Shown in pieces: positions 927 through 56,123 of a stretch of DNA of 64,000 nt (positions are counted from its first letter, which is position 1; every line of letters begins with the position of its first letter). The notes beneath the pieces were generated by a model that was not told where the DNA came from, did no database searches, and was given only the letters and a program-made list of their open reading frames with translations. The translations under genes were made by a program, and so were the position numbers. The stretch is from Minisyncoccota bacterium (GTDB lineage Bacteria; Patescibacteriota; Minisyncoccia; Phycocordibacterales; Phycocordibacteraceae), in assembly GCA_041660025.1 (NCBI GenBank), contig JBAZXD010000001.1, positions 40,059 to 104,058 on the forward strand, in the 5' to 3' direction.

Positions 927-1442
927 ATGGCAGTTATCAAACATCCAGCCCAGCGCGTCGGGGTATTCATCGACACGCAGAATCTCTATCACAGCGCCAA
1001 GCATCTCTATAAAGCGCGCGTGAACTTCGCAAAGGTCCTCGAAGAGGCCGTCGGTGGTCGCGTACTCGTGCGCGCCATCGCCTATGTCATCTCGACCGAG
1101 GCGGGTGACGAGACCAACTTCTTCGAAGCGCTCACGAAGATAGGCATCGAGACCAAGGTAAAGGGCCTCCAGGTCTTCGCCGACGGCGCGAAGAAAGCCG
1201 ACTGGGACGTCGGGCTCGCAATCGACGCGGTCAAACTCGCGCCCAAGCTCGACACAGTCATCATCGCTTCCGGCGATGGCGATTTCGTTCCGCTTATCCA
1301 GTATCTCGATATGAACGAGGGATGCCAGGTAGAGGTCATCTCCTTCGGCAAGTCTTCGTCGGGCAAATTGAAGGAAGCAGCGCACGCCTTCACCGATATG
1401 TGCGACGATCCACGCAAATTTACTATCACCTCGCGGGCATAA
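927..1442 (+). CDS. NYN/LabA-like domain protein (PIN-like putative RNase)
   Basis: VFIDTQNLYHS...DWDVGLAIDA...IIASGDGDFVPL motifs of the NYN (PF01936) fold. The last 18 codons lie inside direct repeat copy 1. Confidence 0.7.
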   Translation: MAVIKHPAQRVGVFIDTQNLYHSAKHLYKARVNFAKVLEEAVGGRVLVRAIAYVISTEAGDETNFFEALTKIGIETKVKGLQVFADGAKKADWDVGLAIDAVKLAPKLDTVIIASGDGDFVPLIQYLDMNEGCQVEVISFGKSSSGKLKEAAHAFTDMCDDPRKFTITSRA

Positions 1443-1443
1443 C
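1389..1443. repeat. direct repeat copy 1 (55 bp), which is the in-use 3' end of the NYN gene
   Basis: ttcaccgatatgtgcgacgatccacgcaaatttactatcacctcgcgggcataac. It is 52/55 identical to 2896..2950; all three differences are synonymous third-position changes, AT-richer in this copy. Confidence 0.8.
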
Positions 1444-1498
1444 TAGTTCGGCAAAAGAAAGCCCCGCGCATTGCGCGAGGCTTAATCGAAATCTGCAC

Positions 1499-6053: not shown

Positions 6054-6060
6054 TCGATGC

Positions 6061-6099
6061 AAAAATCCCGCGATGCCGGAGGCATCGCGGGATTTTTAT
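6061..6099. terminator. bidirectional intrinsic terminator between convergent comM-like and M23 peptidase genes
   Basis: aaaaatcccgcgatgcc-ggag-ggcatcgcgggattttt: a 13-bp perfect stem with an A-tract on one side and a T-tract on the other. Confidence 0.6.
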
Positions 6100-6186
6100 A
6101 AAGAGCTTACTACGACGAGCGAGGGAACAAACGAATGCATTTTGTTTGTTCCTCGAGCGAGGAAGGAGAAAGCGTGCAAGTAACGC

Positions 6187-7299
6187 TTATTGGGGAGCAC
6201 AGACAGCGCCGACAGAGCAATTACGGAAAGGATTGGCCGCGCCGCGGACTTCGAAGTGGAGATGCGCTCCGGTTGAGAGACCGGTCGAGCCGACATAGCC
6301 GATAATCTGGCCGGACGCGACCGACTGTCCCGGCGAGACCGCGACGCTCCGCATGTGCGAATAGAGGGTCTGTGAACCATTACCGTGCGTGATAACGACG
6401 TAGTTGCCGTAGCCGCCATTCCAGCCGCCGCCGCCGCGCGCGACGATGACGGTCCCGTCGGCGGCGGCGCGGATCGTCGTGCCGCGCGAGGCGCCGAAGT
6501 CGACGCCGTTCCAGCCGTGAAGTCTCTGCGTGAGGACGGCGCCCGGGATGGGATTGCTGTAGTAGCCCGTCTGTGCGGAGCCACCACCACCCAAGAAAGG
6601 TTCGCGGATGGTGGATGACGGACGTGCGCTCGACGCGGGCGCGATGATCTCGCCGCCCGGGATGATGATGGTTGAACCGACCTTAAGAGGTTCCGCCGGA
6701 TCGAGACCGTTGAACTGAGCTATATCACCCGCATCGGCACTGTATTTCTTGGCGAGCGACTTGAGCGTATCGCCCTTCGCGATCACGCGCTCGACGCCCG
6801 AGACGGGCAGGATGACGAGCGTATCGCCCGGATGCACATCCCGCGTGCTCTTCAGATTGTTCGCCCACAGGATGGTATTTACCGAGACACCGAACATGTT
6901 CGAGATATCCGAGAGGGTATCGCCCGCGCGCACTACGTAGACCGAGATGCGGTCGGGTTGTACTGCACCCTCGACGTCCGCCAGCGTGCCGGAGGGGCCG
7001 CTATAGGAGACGAGCGCCGCACCGCCAGAGGTAGCGAGCGCTATGGGCGCCCCGGGGTTCGGGTTCCTGTTTATTGACGCCATCAATACCGGCGTCGAAG
7101 CGCTCGGGACGAGCGCATTGGTCGTTGCCGCCCCCGCATTCGTAGAAAAAGGCCAGAACGCACTTGCGTGGTTCGGCAAGATTGCGGCGGCACCTACGAC
7201 GGCCGCGAATCCGAGTATGAAGAATTGTTTGTTGAATGTAATGGGAAAACGAGGGTGTCGGCGGGTCTTTCTAATACAAAAATGGCTTACATAAGCCAT
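6187..7299 (-). CDS. secreted LysM-domain M23-family peptidoglycan endopeptidase
   Basis: Signal-like N-terminus. LysM motifs (YVVRAGDTLSDISNMFGVSVNTILWAN; IAKGDTLKSLAKKYSADAGDIAQFNGL). M23 catalytic motifs HxxxD...GYVGSTGLSTGAHLHFEVR. The exact start is uncertain. Confidence 0.8.
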   Translation of the reverse strand: MAYVSHFCIRKTRRHPRFPITFNKQFFILGFAAVVGAAAILPNHASAFWPFSTNAGAATTNALVPSASTPVLMASINRNPNPGAPIALATSGGAALVSYSGPSGTLADVEGAVQPDRISVYVVRAGDTLSDISNMFGVSVNTILWANNLKSTRDVHPGDTLVILPVSGVERVIAKGDTLKSLAKKYSADAGDIAQFNGLDPAEPLKVGSTIIIPGGEIIAPASSARPSSTIREPFLGGGGSAQTGYYSNPIPGAVLTQRLHGWNGVDFGASRGTTIRAAADGTVIVARGGGGWNGGYGNYVVITHGNGSQTLYSHMRSVAVSPGQSVASGQIIGYVGSTGLSTGAHLHFEVRGAANPFRNCSVGAVCAPQ

Positions 7300-17671: not shown

Positions 17672-18136
17672 ATGCGCCGACCCCTGAAAAAGAAGCGCAC
17701 CTGGCGTCCGGACCTCAAATACGGTTCGGAGACTCTCACTCGCTTCATCAATGCGGTTATGTGGGACGGTAAGAAGGATACGGCGCGCACCGTCGTCTAT
17801 GACGCCCTCGCCGTTATCGAGAAAGGAGGGGAGAACCCGCTCGAGACATTCGAAGCGGCGCTTCGCAACGTGTCGCCTTTGATGGAGGTCCGCTCCCGCC
17901 GCGTCGGCGGTGCGAACTACCAGGTGCCGCGCGAGGTGCCGCAGACGCGCCGTCTCGCACTCTCGTTCCGCTGGCTCATCACCGCAGCGCGCAACAAGAA
18001 GGGTAAGCCGATGGCGGAGAAGCTCGCCGCCGAGCTCCTCTTGGCCTCTAAGAACGAGGGTGACGCTATCAAGAAGAAGGACGAGATGCACCGTATGGCG
18101 GATGCCAACAAGGCCTTCGCCCATTTCGCCTGGTAA
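17672..18136 (+). CDS. rpsG: 30S ribosomal protein S7
   Basis: FINAVMWDGKKDTARTVVYDAL...RRVGGANYQVP...LAAELLLASKNEGDAIKKKDEMHRMADANKAFAHF. Confidence 0.9.
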   Translation: MRRPLKKKRTWRPDLKYGSETLTRFINAVMWDGKKDTARTVVYDALAVIEKGGENPLETFEAALRNVSPLMEVRSRRVGGANYQVPREVPQTRRLALSFRWLITAARNKKGKPMAEKLAAELLLASKNEGDAIKKKDEMHRMADANKAFAHFAW

Positions 18137-18223
18137 GCTTTGAAGACAAAGCTTTCTCCCTACGCTCGCCTCGGACAAATATATGCAGACATACATTTGT
18201 CACTCGGCTCGCTTGGTAGTAAT
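18137..18223 (+). repeat. structured intergenic element, copy A (between rpsG and fusA)
   Basis: gctttg-aaga-caaagc hairpin, then conserved block ctacgctcgcctcgg, variable hairpin acaaat...atttgt, then conserved block cactcggctcgcttggtagtaa. Weak hairpin and T-run follow (18231..18255). See findings. Confidence 0.5.
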
Positions 18224-18262
18224 CTATTAGTGCGCCACGGCGCTTTTATTTTTATTTAATTT

Positions 18263-20410
18263 ATGAACAGAGACTACCCGCTTGAGAAAGTCAGAAATTT
18301 CGGCATCATCGCGCACATCGACGCGGGGAAGACGACTACGTCCGAGCGCGTTCTTTTCTATACGGGTTCCCAGCACAAGATAGGCGAGGTGCACGAGGGC
18401 GAGACGACGACCGACTGGATGGAGCAGGAGCGCGAGCGCGGCATCACCATTACCGCGGCGGCCATCACCTGCTTCTGGACCAAGACCGGCGAGCCGGACA
18501 AGAAGGATACGGCGAAGAAATTCCGTTTCAACGTCATCGACACTCCCGGACACATCGACTTCACCGCCGAGGTGAAGCGCTCGATGCGCGTCCTCGACGG
18601 CGCTATCGTCGTGTTCGACGGTGTTGCAGGCGTGGAGCCGCAGTCCGAGACCAACTGGCGCTACGCCGACGAGGCGCAGGTGCCGCGCGTCTGCTTCATC
18701 AATAAGCTCGACCGCACGGGCGCCTCATTTGAGAGTTCCTACGCGAGCATTCTCGACCGGCTCTCGCCGAAGGCTATCCGTATGCAAATCCCCATCGGCG
18801 AAGAGGCGGCGCACGAGGGTTCTATCGACCTGCTCACGATGAAGGCCTATACCTTCTCGGGGAATATGGGCGAAGAGGTGACCGCGGGCGAGATCCCGAC
18901 ACATCTCCTTGAGGACGCGAAGAAATATCGTGGCGAGCTTATCGAGCGTATCGTCGAACAGGACGACGCGGCGATGGGCGCCTACCTCGAGGGTAAGGAG
19001 CCTTCGCTCGACGAGCTGAAAACAATTTTGCGCAAGGCAGTCATACATAATGAGATTTTCCCCGTCTATTGCGGTAGCGCGCTCAAGAACAAGGGCGTCC
19101 AGCTCGTGCTCGACGCCGTCGTCGACTACCTCCCGTCCCCCTTGGATCTCCCGCCCGCGACCGGCAAGAATCCGAAGACCGGCGAGCCGATCGAGCGTCA
19201 TGCCTCTGACGACGAGCCGTTCTGCGCGCTCGCCTTCAAGCTCCAGACCGATCCGTTCGTCGGCGCGCTGACCTTCTTCCGCGTCTACTCGGGCACCCTC
19301 ACCGCCGGTTCCTACGTCTATAACTCGACGACCGGCTCGAAGGAGCGCGTCGGCCGCATCGTGCGCCTCCAGGCCGACAAGCGCGAGGAAGTCGAGAAGG
19401 TATTCACCGGTGAGATCGCCGCCGCCGTTGGTCTGAAGGATACGAAGACCTCGCACACGCTCTGCGACGAGGCGAACCCGATTATGCTTGAAGAGATCAA
19501 GTTCCCCGAGCCGGTCGTGTCGCTCCGCATCGAGCCGAAGACCAAGGCCGACCAGGAGAAGATGGGCGTCGCGCTCAGGAAGCTCTCGGACGAAGACCCG
19601 ACATTCCGTATCAAGACCGACGAAGAAACCGGCGAGACTATCATCTCCGGTATGGGTGAATTGCATTTGGAAATTCTCGTGGACCGTATGAAGCGCGAGT
19701 TCAACGTCATCGCGGATGTAGGGAAGCCGCAGGTGGCGTATCGCGAGACCATTCTCGGTTCTGCCGAGGCTGAGGGCAAGTACATCAAGCAGACCGGCGG
19801 TCGCGGCCAGTACGGGCACGTGAAGATTAAGATGAAGAAGATGGAACCGGTGGACCCGGAAAAGAAGGTCGCCAAGAACATCACGCGCGAAGACCATTTC
19901 GAATTCATCAACAACATCAAAGGCGGCGTCATCCCTCAGGAATTCATCGCGCCAGTGGAGAAGGGTCTGCGCGAGGCGATGGCGCGCGGCTTCCTCGCCG
20001 GCTTCCCGATGGTCGACGTCTCCGTCGACCTCTACGACGGTTCGTACCACGACGTCGACTCCTCGGAAATCGCCTTCAAGATTGCTGCATCGATGGCCTT
20101 CCAGGAAGCGGCGGGGAGGGCGAAGGCCGTCATCCTCGAGCCGATTATGCGAGTGGAGGTTATCGTGCCGGACCAGTTTATGGGCGACATCACCGGCAAC
20201 CTCTCAGGGAAGCGCGCGCAAATAGAGGGTATGGAGGAACGCGGTATGAACAAGGTCGTGCATGCGAAGGTCCCGCTCTCCGAAATGTTCGGCTACACCA
20301 CCACGCTCCGCTCGATGACTGAGGGCCGCGGTTCGATGACCATGGAGTTTGATCATTACGACACCGTGCCGAAGAACGTTGCCGACGACATCATCGCGTC
20401 GCGTAAATAA
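18263..20410 (+). CDS. fusA: elongation factor G
   Basis: [32 protein letters not shown], and full-length EF-G domain order. Confidence 0.95.
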
Positions 20411-28234: not shown

Positions 28235-28244
28235 TTTTTCTCAT

Positions 28245-28493
28245 ATGCATATCAAAAAAGGCGACAAGGTAAAGGTAATAACGGGCAAGGATAAAGGCAC
28301 GACCGGTGTTGTCCTGCGTGCGCTCCCGCGCGCGGACAAAGTGATCGTCGAGGGCGTCGCGCTCTACAAGCGCCATATGAAGGGCACGGCGGGGAAGGTC
28401 GGGCGCATCATCGAGAAGTCCCGCCCGGTGCACGTGTCGAACGTCGCACTCGTTTCGAAAGAGAAGATCAAATCCGCGCTTGACGCAAAATAA
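28245..28493 (+). CDS. rplX: 50S ribosomal protein L24
   Basis: MHIKKGDKVKVITGKDKGTTGVVLRALPRADKVIVEGV (KOW motif). ATG at 28245 inside the longer track ORF. Confidence 0.85.
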   Translation: MHIKKGDKVKVITGKDKGTTGVVLRALPRADKVIVEGVALYKRHMKGTAGKVGRIIEKSRPVHVSNVALVSKEKIKSALDAK

Positions 28494-28495
28494 TT

Positions 28496-31290: not shown

Positions 31291-31299
31291 TTTTTTCCT

Positions 31300-31776
31300 A
31301 TGCAACTCCATTCCATCGTTTCCCGCACCAAGAATAAGAAGAATCCGCCCGTCGGTCGCGGCGGCAAGCGCGGCAAGACCTCTGGTCGCGGCGGCAAGGG
31401 GCAGACAGCGCGCGCCGGACACAAGATCCGCCCGGAAGTTCGCGACCTCATCAAGAAGATTCCGAAGCGCCGCGGCCACGGCAAGAACCGCGCCCGCACG
31501 GTCCGCACGAATCGCATCGCCGTTTCCGCGGTGAACCTTGCCGCGCTCGAGGCGCTGTACAAGGTCGGCGAGACGGTCTCGCCCGCGACCCTGCTCGCCC
31601 GGGGGCTCGTACGCCGGGCGAAGGGGCGTGCGCCGGTGGTGAAGATTCTCGGCACCGGCGCGCTCACGAAGGCGCTTGTCGTCGAGAACTGCACGTTGTC
31701 TGCCGCCGCACTCGCCGCGCTCACTGCGGCGGGCGGTACCATTCGCGGCGAGCAGGTTCGAACCAGCCATGCTTAA
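31300..31776 (+). CDS. rplO: 50S ribosomal protein L15
   Basis: GRGGKRGKTSGRGGKGQTARAGHKIRPE. No L30 gene lies between rpsE and rplO. Confidence 0.9.
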   Translation: MQLHSIVSRTKNKKNPPVGRGGKRGKTSGRGGKGQTARAGHKIRPEVRDLIKKIPKRRGHGKNRARTVRTNRIAVSAVNLAALEALYKVGETVSPATLLARGLVRRAKGRAPVVKILGTGALTKALVVENCTLSAAALAALTAAGGTIRGEQVRTSHA

Positions 31777-42404: not shown

Positions 42405-43184
42405 ATGACCTCGATACCGAGCTTTCGGAAGATCGTATGGGCGCAGTATAGAAAATCCGGACGGCATACTCTACCGTGGAGAAAAACATACGCTACATAT
42501 AGGGTACTGGTTTCTGAGGTGATGCTCCAGCAGACGCAAGTGGAGCGGGTACTGCCGTTCTACAAAGATTTCATTAAAAAGTTCCCGACGGCGAAGCGGC
42601 TTGCGGCCGCGCCGTTCTCTGAAGTACTGAAAAGCTGGCAAGGACTCGGCTACAATCGCCGAGCAAAGATGCTGCATAGTGCTGCGAAGGAACTCGCGAC
42701 GCGAAAGGCAACTACAGTCTCTGAACTGGAGGCGTTGCCGGGCGTCGGGCCGTACACGGCCCGCGCGATTAGCGCATTCGCTTATAATCAGGATGTTGTT
42801 TTCGTCGAGACAAACATTCGTACTGCTGTCATACACCATTTCTTTAGGAATAAGAAGAAAGTATCAGATACGGAAATAGAAAAAATCTTGGCACAGGCAC
42901 TACCGAAGGGGAGGGCACGGGGGTGGTACAGCGCGCTGATGGACTATGGTGCATTCCTGAAGCGCTCTGGCATCTCATATAATGCGAAAAGCAAAACGTA
43001 TGCGAAACAGTCGAAATTCAGCGGCTCACTCCGCGAAGCGCGCGGCGCTATTTTGCGCGAATTCACACAAGGAGTTACGTCTCGCACCCATCTGGTGAGT
43101 CTTCTCGGTCCTGCGCGCAGACAACAGATGAAAACGGCGTTTGAAGCGCTTCTCGCGGAAGGACTGATCAGCGGAAATCCTTGA
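42405..43184 (+). CDS. MutY-like adenine DNA glycosylase catalytic domain (no FeS cysteines, no NUDIX domain)
   Basis: IVWAQYRKSGRHTLPWRKTYATYRVLVSEVMLQQTQVERVLPFYKDFIKKFPT and LPGVGPYTARAISAFAYNQDVVFVETNIRTAV match the MutY N-terminal region. No Cys in the C-terminal third. Confidence 0.6.
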   Translation: MTSIPSFRKIVWAQYRKSGRHTLPWRKTYATYRVLVSEVMLQQTQVERVLPFYKDFIKKFPTAKRLAAAPFSEVLKSWQGLGYNRRAKMLHSAAKELATRKATTVSELEALPGVGPYTARAISAFAYNQDVVFVETNIRTAVIHHFFRNKKKVSDTEIEKILAQALPKGRARGWYSALMDYGAFLKRSGISYNAKSKTYAKQSKFSGSLREARGAILREFTQGVTSRTHLVSLLGPARRQQMKTAFEALLAEGLISGNP

Positions 43185-48520: not shown

Positions 48521-50466
<1,946 letters not shown>

Positions 50467-50566
50467 CAAGCGAGTGAATCAAAAGAATATTCCTTATTCT
50501 TTTGTGAACGAGCGCTGCTAGAAAGCCGGCTTTGCGGCTTACTAAGGTCCGACCTTAGAATTTTTG

Positions 50567-54915: not shown

Positions 54916-55143
54916 ATGAAGTTACACGCTATCGCGTTCGTTCTTGTCGTCATCGGCGGTCTCAATTGGGGACTCGTGGCGATTGGGTCCTATATGGGCA
55001 GCAACTGGAACGTCGTGAACCTCCTCCTCGGCTCGTGGCCGGCGGTCGAGAATCTCGTCTATCTGGTTGTCGGTCTCTCGGCGCTCACACTCGTCTTCTC
55101 GCACAAGAAGGACTGCCGCGCCTGCAACCCTTCGGGGATGTAA
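54916..55143 (+). CDS. DUF378-family small membrane protein
   Basis: GGLNWGLVAIG...VENLVYLVVGLSALTLVF. 75 aa. ATG at 54916 inside the longer track ORF. Confidence 0.55.
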   Translation: MKLHAIAFVLVVIGGLNWGLVAIGSYMGSNWNVVNLLLGSWPAVENLVYLVVGLSALTLVFSHKKDCRACNPSGM

Positions 55144-55144
55144 A

Positions 55145-55228
55145 CTCTGAAGACAGAGTTTTCTACCTACACTCGCTCGGAAATAATGAAGTAAAGATCT
55201 CATTATTTCCTCGCTCGTTTGGTAGTAA
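55145..55228 (+). repeat. structured intergenic element, copy B
   Basis: actctg-aaga-cagagt hairpin (covaries with copy A), ctacactcgctcgg, variable hairpin aaataatga...tcattattt, cctcgctcgtttggtagtaa. Its own strong terminator follows at 55250..55285. Confidence 0.5.
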
Positions 55229-55249
55229 GCCGCAAGGCAAAAAGCAAAA

Positions 55250-55285
55250 GAATCGCCGGCGCAAAGCGCCGGCGATTCTTTTTAC
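55250..55285 (+). terminator. strong intrinsic terminator following element copy B
   Basis: gaatcgccggcgc-aaa-gcgccggcgattc followed by ttttt. Confidence 0.6.
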
Positions 55286-55350
55286 TCCCTTCGCTCGCCT
55301 CGGTCGAACGCATGGGGACATGCACTCGACGTTCGGCTCGCTTGGTAGTA
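55284..55350 (+). repeat. structured intergenic element, copy C (lacks the 5' hairpin)
   Basis: ttcgctcgcctcgg, variable hairpin tcgaacg...cgttcg, gctcgcttggtagtag. Confidence 0.5.
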
Positions 55351-55873: not shown

Positions 55874-56034
55874 GCTTTTCGAAACGTACCATTTCAGTAC
55901 AGGGAGGGATTCGGTCACGCATAAAATCCTGTTGGATTTTTGCGCGACCCCGCCTCGCGCCGTCGCGCTCCGGCTTTCGAATCCCGTCCTCCCGATACAA
56001 AAAGCGCCCATAAGGGGCGCCTTTGTATCGGGTG

Positions 56035-56123
56035 CGGAGGGGGAGGGATTCGAACCCTCGATACGGTTTTACCCGTATAGCGAGTTAGCAACCCGCCGCA
56101 CTAGGCCTCTATGCGACCCCTCC
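56035..56123 (-). tRNA. tRNA-Ser (anticodon GCU), type II with long variable arm
   Basis: The reverse complement folds by hand: acceptor GGAGGGG/CCCCTCC, D-arm GCA-TAGAGGCCTAG-TGC, anticodon stem GCGGG/CTCGC with loop TTGCTAA (GCT), 20-nt variable arm ATACGG-GTAAAA-CCGTAT, T-arm GAGGG-TTCGAAT-CCCTC, discriminator G. CCA is not encoded. Confidence 0.8.

Follow-up and report, generated by a model that had tools for sequence, protein, structure and literature searches.

A clade-restricted, hairpin-forming interspersed repeat with REP-like and MITE-like features at core-gene ends of Kaiserbacteria-type Parcubacteria

In the 64,000-nt stretch of Minisyncoccota DNA analysed here (the window), rpsG ends at 18136 (TGG TAA) and the ATG of fusA stands at 18263, and the 126-nt spacer between the two genes holds two unrelated parts. 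The first is copy A (18136-18221, plus strand; 76 bits), a complete type I unit of a short repeat family that is the subject of this report, scored with a covariance model (R1) built from 35 copies. It opens with a small hairpin, P1 (18136..18153; predicted fold, 7 bp, AGCTTTG-AAGA-CAAAGCT), and continues as a core (18153..18221) made up of TTTCT, the outer stem, GCTCGCCTCGG, an inner hairpin with a CAGA loop and CTCGGCTCGCTTGGTAGTA, with the right end GGTAGTA at 18221. The rpsG stop codon (TAA, 18134..18136, plus strand) overlaps the unit: its TA is native, and its final A, which doubles as the first A of P1, is read as base 1 of the element (junction TA|A). A P1 identical to that of copy A was found at a different site in another genome (L030).

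The second part lies outside the element. It is the fusA leader, with a hairpin (GCGCC-ac-GGCGC) and T-run at 18229..18254 on the plus strand, 8 nt before the fusA ATG, and a terminator scan flagged it as the sole terminator-like site in the spacer. In most relatives the hairpin and TTTTATTTTTAT precede fusA irrespective of the element; because relatives that lack the element keep the same hairpin and T-run, 18229-18254 is assigned to the leader and not to the repeat. An earlier description of this locus, made from the letters and open reading frames (ORFs) alone (the sequence-only reading), had listed gctttg-aaga-caaagc, TTTCT, CTACGCTCGCCTCGG, the inner hairpin and CACTCGGCTCGCTTGGTAGTAA, all of which are present where it placed them, but the weak trailing hairpin and T-run that it counted as part of the element are this conserved leader. 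In the window (18229-18262) and in L040-L089 the leader comprises a promoter-like GCTATTCT...AAC, the hairpin GCGCC-NN-GGCGC and TTTTATTTTTAT up to the ATG, with no obvious Shine-Dalgarno sequence before the ATG; it could act as an attenuator or translation signal. Exact-protein look-ups with the window fusA and rpsG products returned no record.

Across the family the unit is about 80-90 nt long and consists of P1, TTTCT and one long imperfect hairpin, in that order. P1 is a 5-7-bp hairpin whose sequence varies among copies, with compensated variants, and which at the ftsZ site is enlarged to 10-13 bp and followed by TTTCTTTCT. The two conserved blocks of the core pair with each other, and the whole core folds as a single long hairpin. 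Its outer stem (CYCC/GGTAG) carries conserved U.U and C.U mismatches; further in, the invariant blocks GCUCG(C)CUCGG and CUCGGCUCGC lie opposite each other, as G-C pairs split by tandem U.C/C.U mismatches. When the 5' arm is compared with the reverse complement of the 3' arm, the two agree only in the outer 8 nt; further in, the blocks repeat GCTCG in direct orientation. The middle helix distinguishes two subtypes, GCC/GGC and GC/GC, which are one base pair apart through a compensated pair insertion or deletion. The inner stem is variable in sequence and retains its pairing. Its apical loop is often NRGA: among the minimum-free-energy (MFE) folds of 48 distinct cores, four-base loops read AAGA in 11, CAGA in 6, AGGA in 3 and GGGA in 3, and several of the longer predicted loops also hold an NRGA-type motif. 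The sequence-only reading was right that these inner hairpins are self-paired, but they are not unrelated, as it supposed; they are diverged homologues with compensated changes and mostly an NRGA loop. Genome-wide, hairpins with NRGA loops are enriched only slightly, which is accounted for by the elements themselves.

The fold is supported by covariation. In 41 distinct sequences, 92.9% of the cells assigned to pairs can pair, compared with 35-54% when the partners are slid. Both sides have changed in 14 of 19 pairs, giving 138 compensated cells, a result reached by none of 500 shuffles; an independent MAFFT/RNAalifold run recovered compensated pairs at 8 of 13. These counts bear out the earlier proposal of a structured, multi-copy family with covarying stems.

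The covariance model places five full copies in the window, two of them on the minus strand, with scores of 35-76 bits and the next match at 12 bits. Copy B (type II; 55143..55227, plus strand; 69.1 bits) begins directly after the stop codon of a DUF378 gene, with P1 (AACTCTG-AAGA-CAGAGTT) at 55143-55160 and its core at 55160-55227. Copy C (type I; 55282..55350, plus strand; 66.3 bits) is a core alone (TTACT...GGTAGTA) and is preceded by a canonical terminator at 55246-55282. Copy D (50461..50539, minus strand; 68.8 bits), with P1 at 50525-50539 and the core at 50461-50524, has a compensated outer stem, TTTCTAGC...GCTAGTA, and its last bases are the complement of the final TAC TAG of groEL. 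Copy E (6108..6187, minus strand; 35.4 bits), with P1 at 6171-6187 and the core at 6108-6171, starts within the stop codon of a LysM/M23 peptidase gene and is followed by a canonical terminator at about 6060-6096. Copies A, B and C had been noted beforehand, B and C at the same places, and all three are real; D and E had been missed. The pattern GCTCG-N25-55-CTCGYTTGSTAGTA occurs four times in the window against 0.00 expected from 100 shuffles, and each conserved block taken on its own is near chance level.

The search of related genomes and the covariance model that had been suggested for this element show that the family is restricted to one clade. In a scan of one genome for each of 185,579 species, for which we estimate fewer than one chance match, the strict pattern found 31 more loci, all in metagenome-assembled genomes (MAGs) of Patescibacteria labelled Paceibacterota, Parcubacteria, Kaiserbacteria and similar. 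The model gave 43 matches in 276 kb, scoring up to 84 bits, and 50 in all once rpsG loci were included. Seven copies were found in 516 kb around rpsG from 80 metagenomic relatives, none of them at an rpsG identity below 87%; element-bearing loci are at least 87% identical to the window in rpsG and 90-92% in fusA, and the window GroEL is 88-95% identical to Kaiserbacteria proteins. Several contigs among the metagenomic relatives derive from groundwater samples labelled 'Hain'. Copy number differs sharply among close relatives, from 5 per 64 kb in the window to 0 in 43 kb of syntenic sequence from two loci of relatives with GroEL 93-94% identical. Against Rfam 15 at the gathering threshold, the whole window yielded only a tRNA-Ser, and permissive scans of the A and B/C regions gave at best 26 bits against thresholds of 36-130, in line with the sequence-only reading, which recognised no known RNA family. 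Blastn against plasmids and phages gave no match; eight matches to a looser pattern in viral contigs all lack the hairpin and TTTCT and look like chance. A full-text literature search found no link between the Candidate Phyla Radiation (CPR) and repetitive extragenic palindromic (REP) sequences or miniature inverted-repeat transposable elements (MITEs), and the family appears to be undescribed so far.

Orthologous sites are found filled, empty or inverted among close relatives. For example, the rpsG-fusA junction is empty in L042, L053 and L064 (48-58 nt), holds a single copy in L050, L011 and L026, and carries two tandem copies in L086, whose close relative L089 there reads TGG TAA CAAAAGG...; in L043 one inverted copy, with its own P1, lies in the T-run of the fusA leader after an opposite-strand TAA. 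Likewise, genomes encoding an identical DUF378 protein have 0, 1 or 2 copies behind that gene. The site is empty in L127 and L128 (GATGTA|AGCTCGC...) and filled by copy B in L126 and the window (GATGTA|AACTCTG...GGTAGTA|AGCCGC...), and copy C is present in the window and absent from L126. When the window is compared with L126, copy B has no difference over its 85 positions; in the adjacent coding sequence 8 of 227 positions differ, each at the same codon position, and in the upstream flank 22 of 136. Since the copy is identical while its flanks diverge, this comparison points to a recent acquisition or a recent recombination tract. The terminator at 55246-55282 differs between the same two genomes by a compensated pair at 55253/55275 (GAATCGCC...GGCGATTC versus GAACCGCC...GGCGGTTC).

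The groEL site is filled in the window and empty in L126 (GGG TAC TAA cgag...) and L120 (GGT TAC TAG aaaa...). At the 5' junction of copy D the native TTAGTA is kept on the minus strand, and the TAC TAG of groEL is now provided by the right end of the copy (CTAGTA). The outer stem survives the G-to-C change that makes this stop codon, since the 5' arm has changed to match (TTTCTAGC). Addition of the final tyrosine of GroEL by the element was considered and ruled out: the C-terminus is Y or F in 120 of 120 GroEL relatives (GY, DY or GF), and the terminal tyrosine is therefore native. L030 and L031 share one variant of the element, which lies antisense inside an RRM protein gene, in the part encoding the glycine-rich tail, and truncates the gene to ...RGGY-stop. 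A separate hairpin, CTAAGGTC-CGAC-CTTAG, with an A/T-run 3' of groEL (window 50542-50558), has the opposite orientation in L120 (11636-11660), so that a palindromic, terminator-like unit has been flipped between the two.

The filled and empty pairs define a junction rule: the target reads (G)TA|R, the initial A of the unit restores TAA, and the terminal GTAGTA recreates the target. In 47 of 48 distinct copies a TAA lies no more than 32 nt upstream of TTTCT, preceded by G in 28, A in 13, T in 5 and C in 1, and the base after GTAGTA is A in 30, G in 17 and T in 1 (a purine in 47 of 48). Where a TAA or TAG stop codon is split, it is rebuilt as TAA by the first base of the unit. Head-to-tail arrays occur in L086, L036, L037, L028 and L017; these, and the repeated use of sites that resemble the right end, would as a general rule follow from the recreation of the target by GTAGTA. 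Recurrent mimic sites are the rpsG end GCTTGGTA|A, the tRNA D-loop GGTA|G and the complement of the groEL TAC TAA. For instance, the rpsG end TTCGCTTGGTAR agrees with the right-end block at 14 of 15 positions, and two copies lie at D-loop-like GGTA|G sites within partial duplicates of the 5' parts of an intron-bearing tRNA-Thr and a tRNA-Gln. Target mimicry does not fully explain a variant copy in L017 that is fused at its 3' end to a neighbouring tRNA-Arg and whose outer stem, GGGAG/CUCCC, is the same as the acceptor stem of this tRNA.

These loci have further features. In L014 (4074-4336) the single tRNA call made by ARAGORN is a tRNA-Thr(TGT) with a 186-nt intron. The element-carrying partial duplicates comprise the first 20-28 nt of the tRNA and lie upstream of the L014 tRNA-Thr and the L036 tRNA-Gln; in L036 (1645-1716 and 1930-1960, minus strand) the elements are followed in addition by this tRNA fragment in inverted form. 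In one MAG, DATDST01 (L024 4575-4710, L027 4820-4955 and L037 600-830), the element sits inside a larger repeat rich in the heptamer ATTCGTA (attcgtatcattcgtcataattcgtaag ... aaatattcgtatcATG), which lies upstream of different genes and could represent either a promoter or operator motif that recurs or a mobile unit of larger size. Directly 3' of one copy in L038 (7133-7175) is a tandem GGTTGGA repeat (ggttggaggttggaggttggaggttggg).

Most copies for which a neighbouring gene end could be oriented lie in the sense direction. With orientation taken from stop-codon-anchored ORFs and a gene call based on G+C at third codon positions, about 24 copies start at the stop codon of a gene on their own strand and about 6 abut the end of a gene on the other, a bias to be expected if insertion in antisense generally harms the C-terminus. 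The genes at 5' junctions are rpsG, ftsZ (6-7 genomes), DUF378, HU, L32, RNase J, fusA, a DsbA-like protein and the M23 peptidase, and infA lies just downstream of three copies. Canonical terminators commonly stand 10-30 nt 3' of the element. In L026 fusA starts 10 nt after the element without a promoter of its own, so transcription must read through; by position, the element would be co-transcribed in 3' untranslated regions (3'UTRs) or operon spacers. Terminator scans picked up nothing beyond the fusA leader and the canonical terminators nearby and in no case flagged the long hairpin of the element, which is followed by AGUAA and no U-tract. By these scans the element is not itself a terminator. 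The ftsZ site provides five gaplessly alignable copies in different genomes, with fully compensated changes at four inner-stem positions.

The rpsG-fusA junction is in addition a hot spot for several kinds of insert. Eight loci (L040, L041, L044, L047, L054, L059, L062 and L083) have a different two-hairpin module after the rpsG stop, ATTTTGTAATCAAAAT then ATCCCGAGC-nnnn-GTCGAGGGAT, often with a -10 box resembling TGTGTTATACT and inserted small genes behind it; the inserts in L040 include a confirmed HicA toxin with a partner ORF.

Elsewhere in the window, the 12-bit match (1418-1462; as a possible mini copy, 1418-1490, minus strand) was rejected, being a terminator plus the antisense 3' end of an NYN-domain gene (927-1442). 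The 3' end of this gene is the first of two 56-nt direct repeats (1388-1443 and 2895-2950, 95% identical) that flank a segment of about 1.45 kb (1443-2894) with a GC content of 0.40 versus about 0.59 elsewhere. The segment holds a 145-aa ORF without a Pfam match and a TrmB-like regulator (2027-2884), and from its sequence it looks like a small integrated element that duplicated the gene end. Several spacers are long for a compact genome: 20411-20935 (fusA-tuf), 28235-28495, 31291-31675 and 42840-43167. The fusA-tuf gap measures 525 nt and holds only a doubtful 81-aa ORF.

We interpret the family as a REP-like or MITE-like short interspersed repeat of Kaiserbacteria-type Parcubacteria that is clade-restricted, non-coding, hairpin-forming and at least recently mobile, and we put the probability of this reading at roughly two in three. 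It draws on the conserved fold, the clade restriction, the exact polymorphism in presence, absence and inversion, the TA|A...GTAGTA|R rule, the tandem arrays and the location in transcribed regions. Of the three options offered by the sequence-only reading, a MITE-like repeat fits best, in that one and the same site may hold a copy, lack it or carry it inverted in close relatives. On this interpretation the unit would insert actively and not only be deleted, and it would probably be recognised as a folded single strand, because its stems covary while its arms are not inverted repeats at the sequence level. By analogy, the nearest precedent for the enzyme would be a single-strand transposase of the HUH/Y1 type, as in IS200/IS605 elements and in REP sequences with their associated tyrosine transposases (RAYTs). 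Once inserted, the element would be co-transcribed in a 3'UTR upstream of the real terminator or within an operon spacer, and some older copies, at ftsZ, infA and rpsG, may since have taken on a role as structures at RNA 3' ends. A host function of the element at the RNA level is possible.

Several observations weigh against this interpretation. The complement is the more stable strand in 46 of 48 copies (mean -23.1 versus -18.5 kcal/mol), because the U.C/C.U steps become 5'-C-GA-G-3' tandem G.A steps there, a context whose stability in RNA as well as DNA is known from published thermodynamic work. There are 20 isolated A.C mismatches (G.U when read on the complement) against 6 G.T, a weak line of evidence because many are inherited subfamily variants. 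Insertion 3' of (G)TA is naturally read on the strand described here, and the strand asymmetries fit neither a sense-RNA model nor an IS608-type top-strand model neatly. The sites at ftsZ (6-7 genomes), rpsG (at least 6) and upstream of infA (3) are occupied in many genomes, and this recurrence in streamlined genomes, together with the compensation in place at ftsZ, suggests selection at the level of the host and a function beyond selfish spread; gene conversion from active copies is another possible source of the ftsZ compensation. What is seen at the C site is a replacement and not a clean insertion. TA or TAA stands at both junctions, and the same outcome is expected from an element ending in ...GTA that inserts after (G)TA. 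The unit has no terminal inverted repeats (TIRs), and every polymorphism could in principle be explained by precise deletion instead of insertion. In a weak test, a tblastn search of 845 kb with an approximate IS200 TnpA probe returned nothing better than E = 0.7. A Pfam scan of ten window proteins gave no Y1_Tnp match, and about 0.85 Mb contained no 5' and 3' halves flanking a gene at a distance of 0.1-4 kb; "orphan" 3' blocks that had been taken as candidate split elements are rpsG gene ends.

The alternative with the most in its favour, possible although clearly the less probable, is an RNA element of the host that acts in cis in 3'UTRs and operon spacers, serving in protein binding, in RNase processing or as a 3'-end stabiliser, which selection keeps and which scatters by duplication and recombination. 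In E. coli, REPs are known to protect mRNA 3' ends. About half of the copies start at a same-strand stop codon, with some 24 in sense and 6 in antisense, and their hosts are highly expressed housekeeping genes (rpsG, fusA, ftsZ, HU, L32, groEL, the RRM protein and RNase J). A canonical terminator often follows within 10-30 nt, so that the element would be transcribed; orthologous ftsZ copies retain pairing by compensated changes, and the NRGA loop and GCUCG blocks are conserved in sequence. Such a role is harder to reconcile with sites that are filled, empty or inverted among very close relatives, with a density that falls from 5 copies in 64 kb to none in 43 kb, with copies in both orientations to transcription (D, L030, L031, L043) and with wobble and MFE asymmetries that favour the complement of the usual mRNA strand. 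Equally tentative is the proposal that the family represents a new kind of mobile element of CPR genomes, recognised as a single strand and lacking TIRs, and defined by its long hairpin, two invariant tandem-mismatch steps and a (G)TA|R insertion that rebuilds the stop. In this model, the steps would be U.C/C.U on one strand and sheared-type G.A in 5'-C-GA-G-3' on the other, the enzyme or RNA-templated route would be one not yet tied to such repeats, a possible example being target-primed copying through the microhomology between the target and the GGTAGTA end, and some copies (ftsZ, rpsG, infA, groEL) would have become 3'UTR structures in the service of the host.

A tRNA-derived or tRNA-mimicking element is improbable, whether imagined as a retroposed RNA like a short interspersed nuclear element, priming by its 3' end at matching targets, or as punctuation for tRNA-processing enzymes. 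The right end GCTCGCTTGGTAG does resemble the D-arm GCTCAGTTGGTAG, as the sequence-only reading had remarked in adding that no full tRNA could be folded; copies occur in the partial tRNA-Thr and tRNA-Gln duplicates at the D-loop GGTA|G, the L017 copy shares the acceptor stem of tRNA-Arg and is fused to it at the 3' end, and targets share microhomology with the 3' end of the element. But there is no cloverleaf, ARAGORN and Rfam finding in the window only the tRNA-Ser at 56034-56123; a tRNA adjoins just 3 of about 50 copies, no reverse transcriptase is linked to the element, and it has no 3' CCA or equivalent of a T-arm. Even less credit is due to the two remaining options of the sequence-only reading, an independent family of small-RNA genes and a module combining terminator and restart (promoter). 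P1 followed by UUUCU looks like a weak terminator, the ftsZ P1 has 10-13 bp with TTTCTTTCT after it, and some downstream genes start 7-20 nt past the element. These options are opposed by the lack of a sigma-70-like site within the unit, which leaves no room for a promoter because it begins inside the upstream stop codon, and by the missing U-tract after the long hairpin and the read-through needed in L026, where promoterless fusA follows 10 nt on. Chance or low sequence complexity as the source of the spacer similarity is refuted by the two-block pattern (4 versus 0 expected), the 31 genome matches in a single phylum and the model scores up to 84 bits.

CPR/Patescibacteria genomes are tiny, streamlined and generally held to be repeat-poor. 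A structured interspersed repeat in high copy number that combines strain turnover with persistence at core genes offers a handle on CPR genome dynamics; it is usable as a strain-level marker for population genetics and is a likely cause of assembly breaks. It also lends itself well to the question of how TA|R sites and stop codons are located by a hairpin element that has no inverted repeats at its ends. Should the family prove to serve its host, it would rank among the first cis-RNA elements defined for the phylum.

Compared with known systems, the element differs from intrinsic terminators in having no G+C-rich hairpin followed by a U-tract, and Tas-associated TIGR arrays were rejected because its copies are dispersed, without RUGAUGA/CUGA box C/D motifs or a Nop-domain neighbour. 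Integron attC sites resemble it as folded single strands with structure conserved above sequence, an outer stem, central mismatches and a variable terminal hairpin. Unlike attC, it has no R''/R' boxes (RYYYAAC / GTTRRRY), ends in TTTCTCCC / GGTAGTAA, forms no cassette arrays and lies beside housekeeping genes (rpsG, ftsZ, groEL and similar). With the Correia/NEMIS elements of Neisseria, enterobacterial ERIC and pneumococcal RUP it shares a length of about 70-150 nt, intergenic location at TA, long RNA hairpins in mRNAs, presence/absence polymorphism among strains and the ability to alter gene 3' ends. Those elements have long TIRs and a clear TA duplication by a DDE transposase, whereas the terminal symmetry here is only the imperfect 8-mer TTTCTCCC/GGTAGTAA, and there is none when P1 is included; the unit ends AGC...P1 and ...TTGGTAG are unrelated and do not form the TIR of at least 10 bp that marks a classical MITE.

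The closest architectural match is to the palindrome-associated transposable elements (PATEs) derived from IS200/IS605, which likewise lack TIRs, carry hairpins close to both ends and insert in a fixed orientation, 3' of a short specific target resembling their own right end, with no clear target duplication and possible head-to-tail arrays. The element departs from PATEs in that its left cleavage would be at the foot of P1 and not about 19 nt upstream, its two hairpins differ in size, with a UG-NRGA-CA apex shared in some copies only, its strand asymmetry misfits a simple top-strand model, and no TnpA gene or full-length parent element was found in the roughly 0.85 Mb probed.

REP sequences and their mosaic (BIME) and paired (REPIN-RAYT) arrangements in E. 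coli and Pseudomonas differ in that the REP GTAG stands 5' of an imperfect palindrome of 20-40 nt, whereas the invariant GTAG here lies at the 3' end of a hairpin of about 70 nt. A GTAA just 5' of P1 in about half of the copies is only suggestive of a REP likeness. In addition, REPIN arms are inverted copies and those of the element, past the outer 8 nt, are GCTCG repeats in direct orientation whose pairing runs through mismatches; the element has a second small hairpin, P1, and a defined TA|R insertion site, and no RAYT gene was seen in the roughly 0.85 Mb covered by the approximate TnpA probe. The likeness is otherwise extensive: both are short extragenic palindromes present in many copies, co-transcribed in 3'UTRs and operon spacers and often near stop codons, with a clade-specific sequence, a compensated hairpin, a GTAG motif and tandem or clustered arrays. 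Hence, we file the family under the bacterial interspersed palindromic repeats, as one that is itself apparently undescribed.

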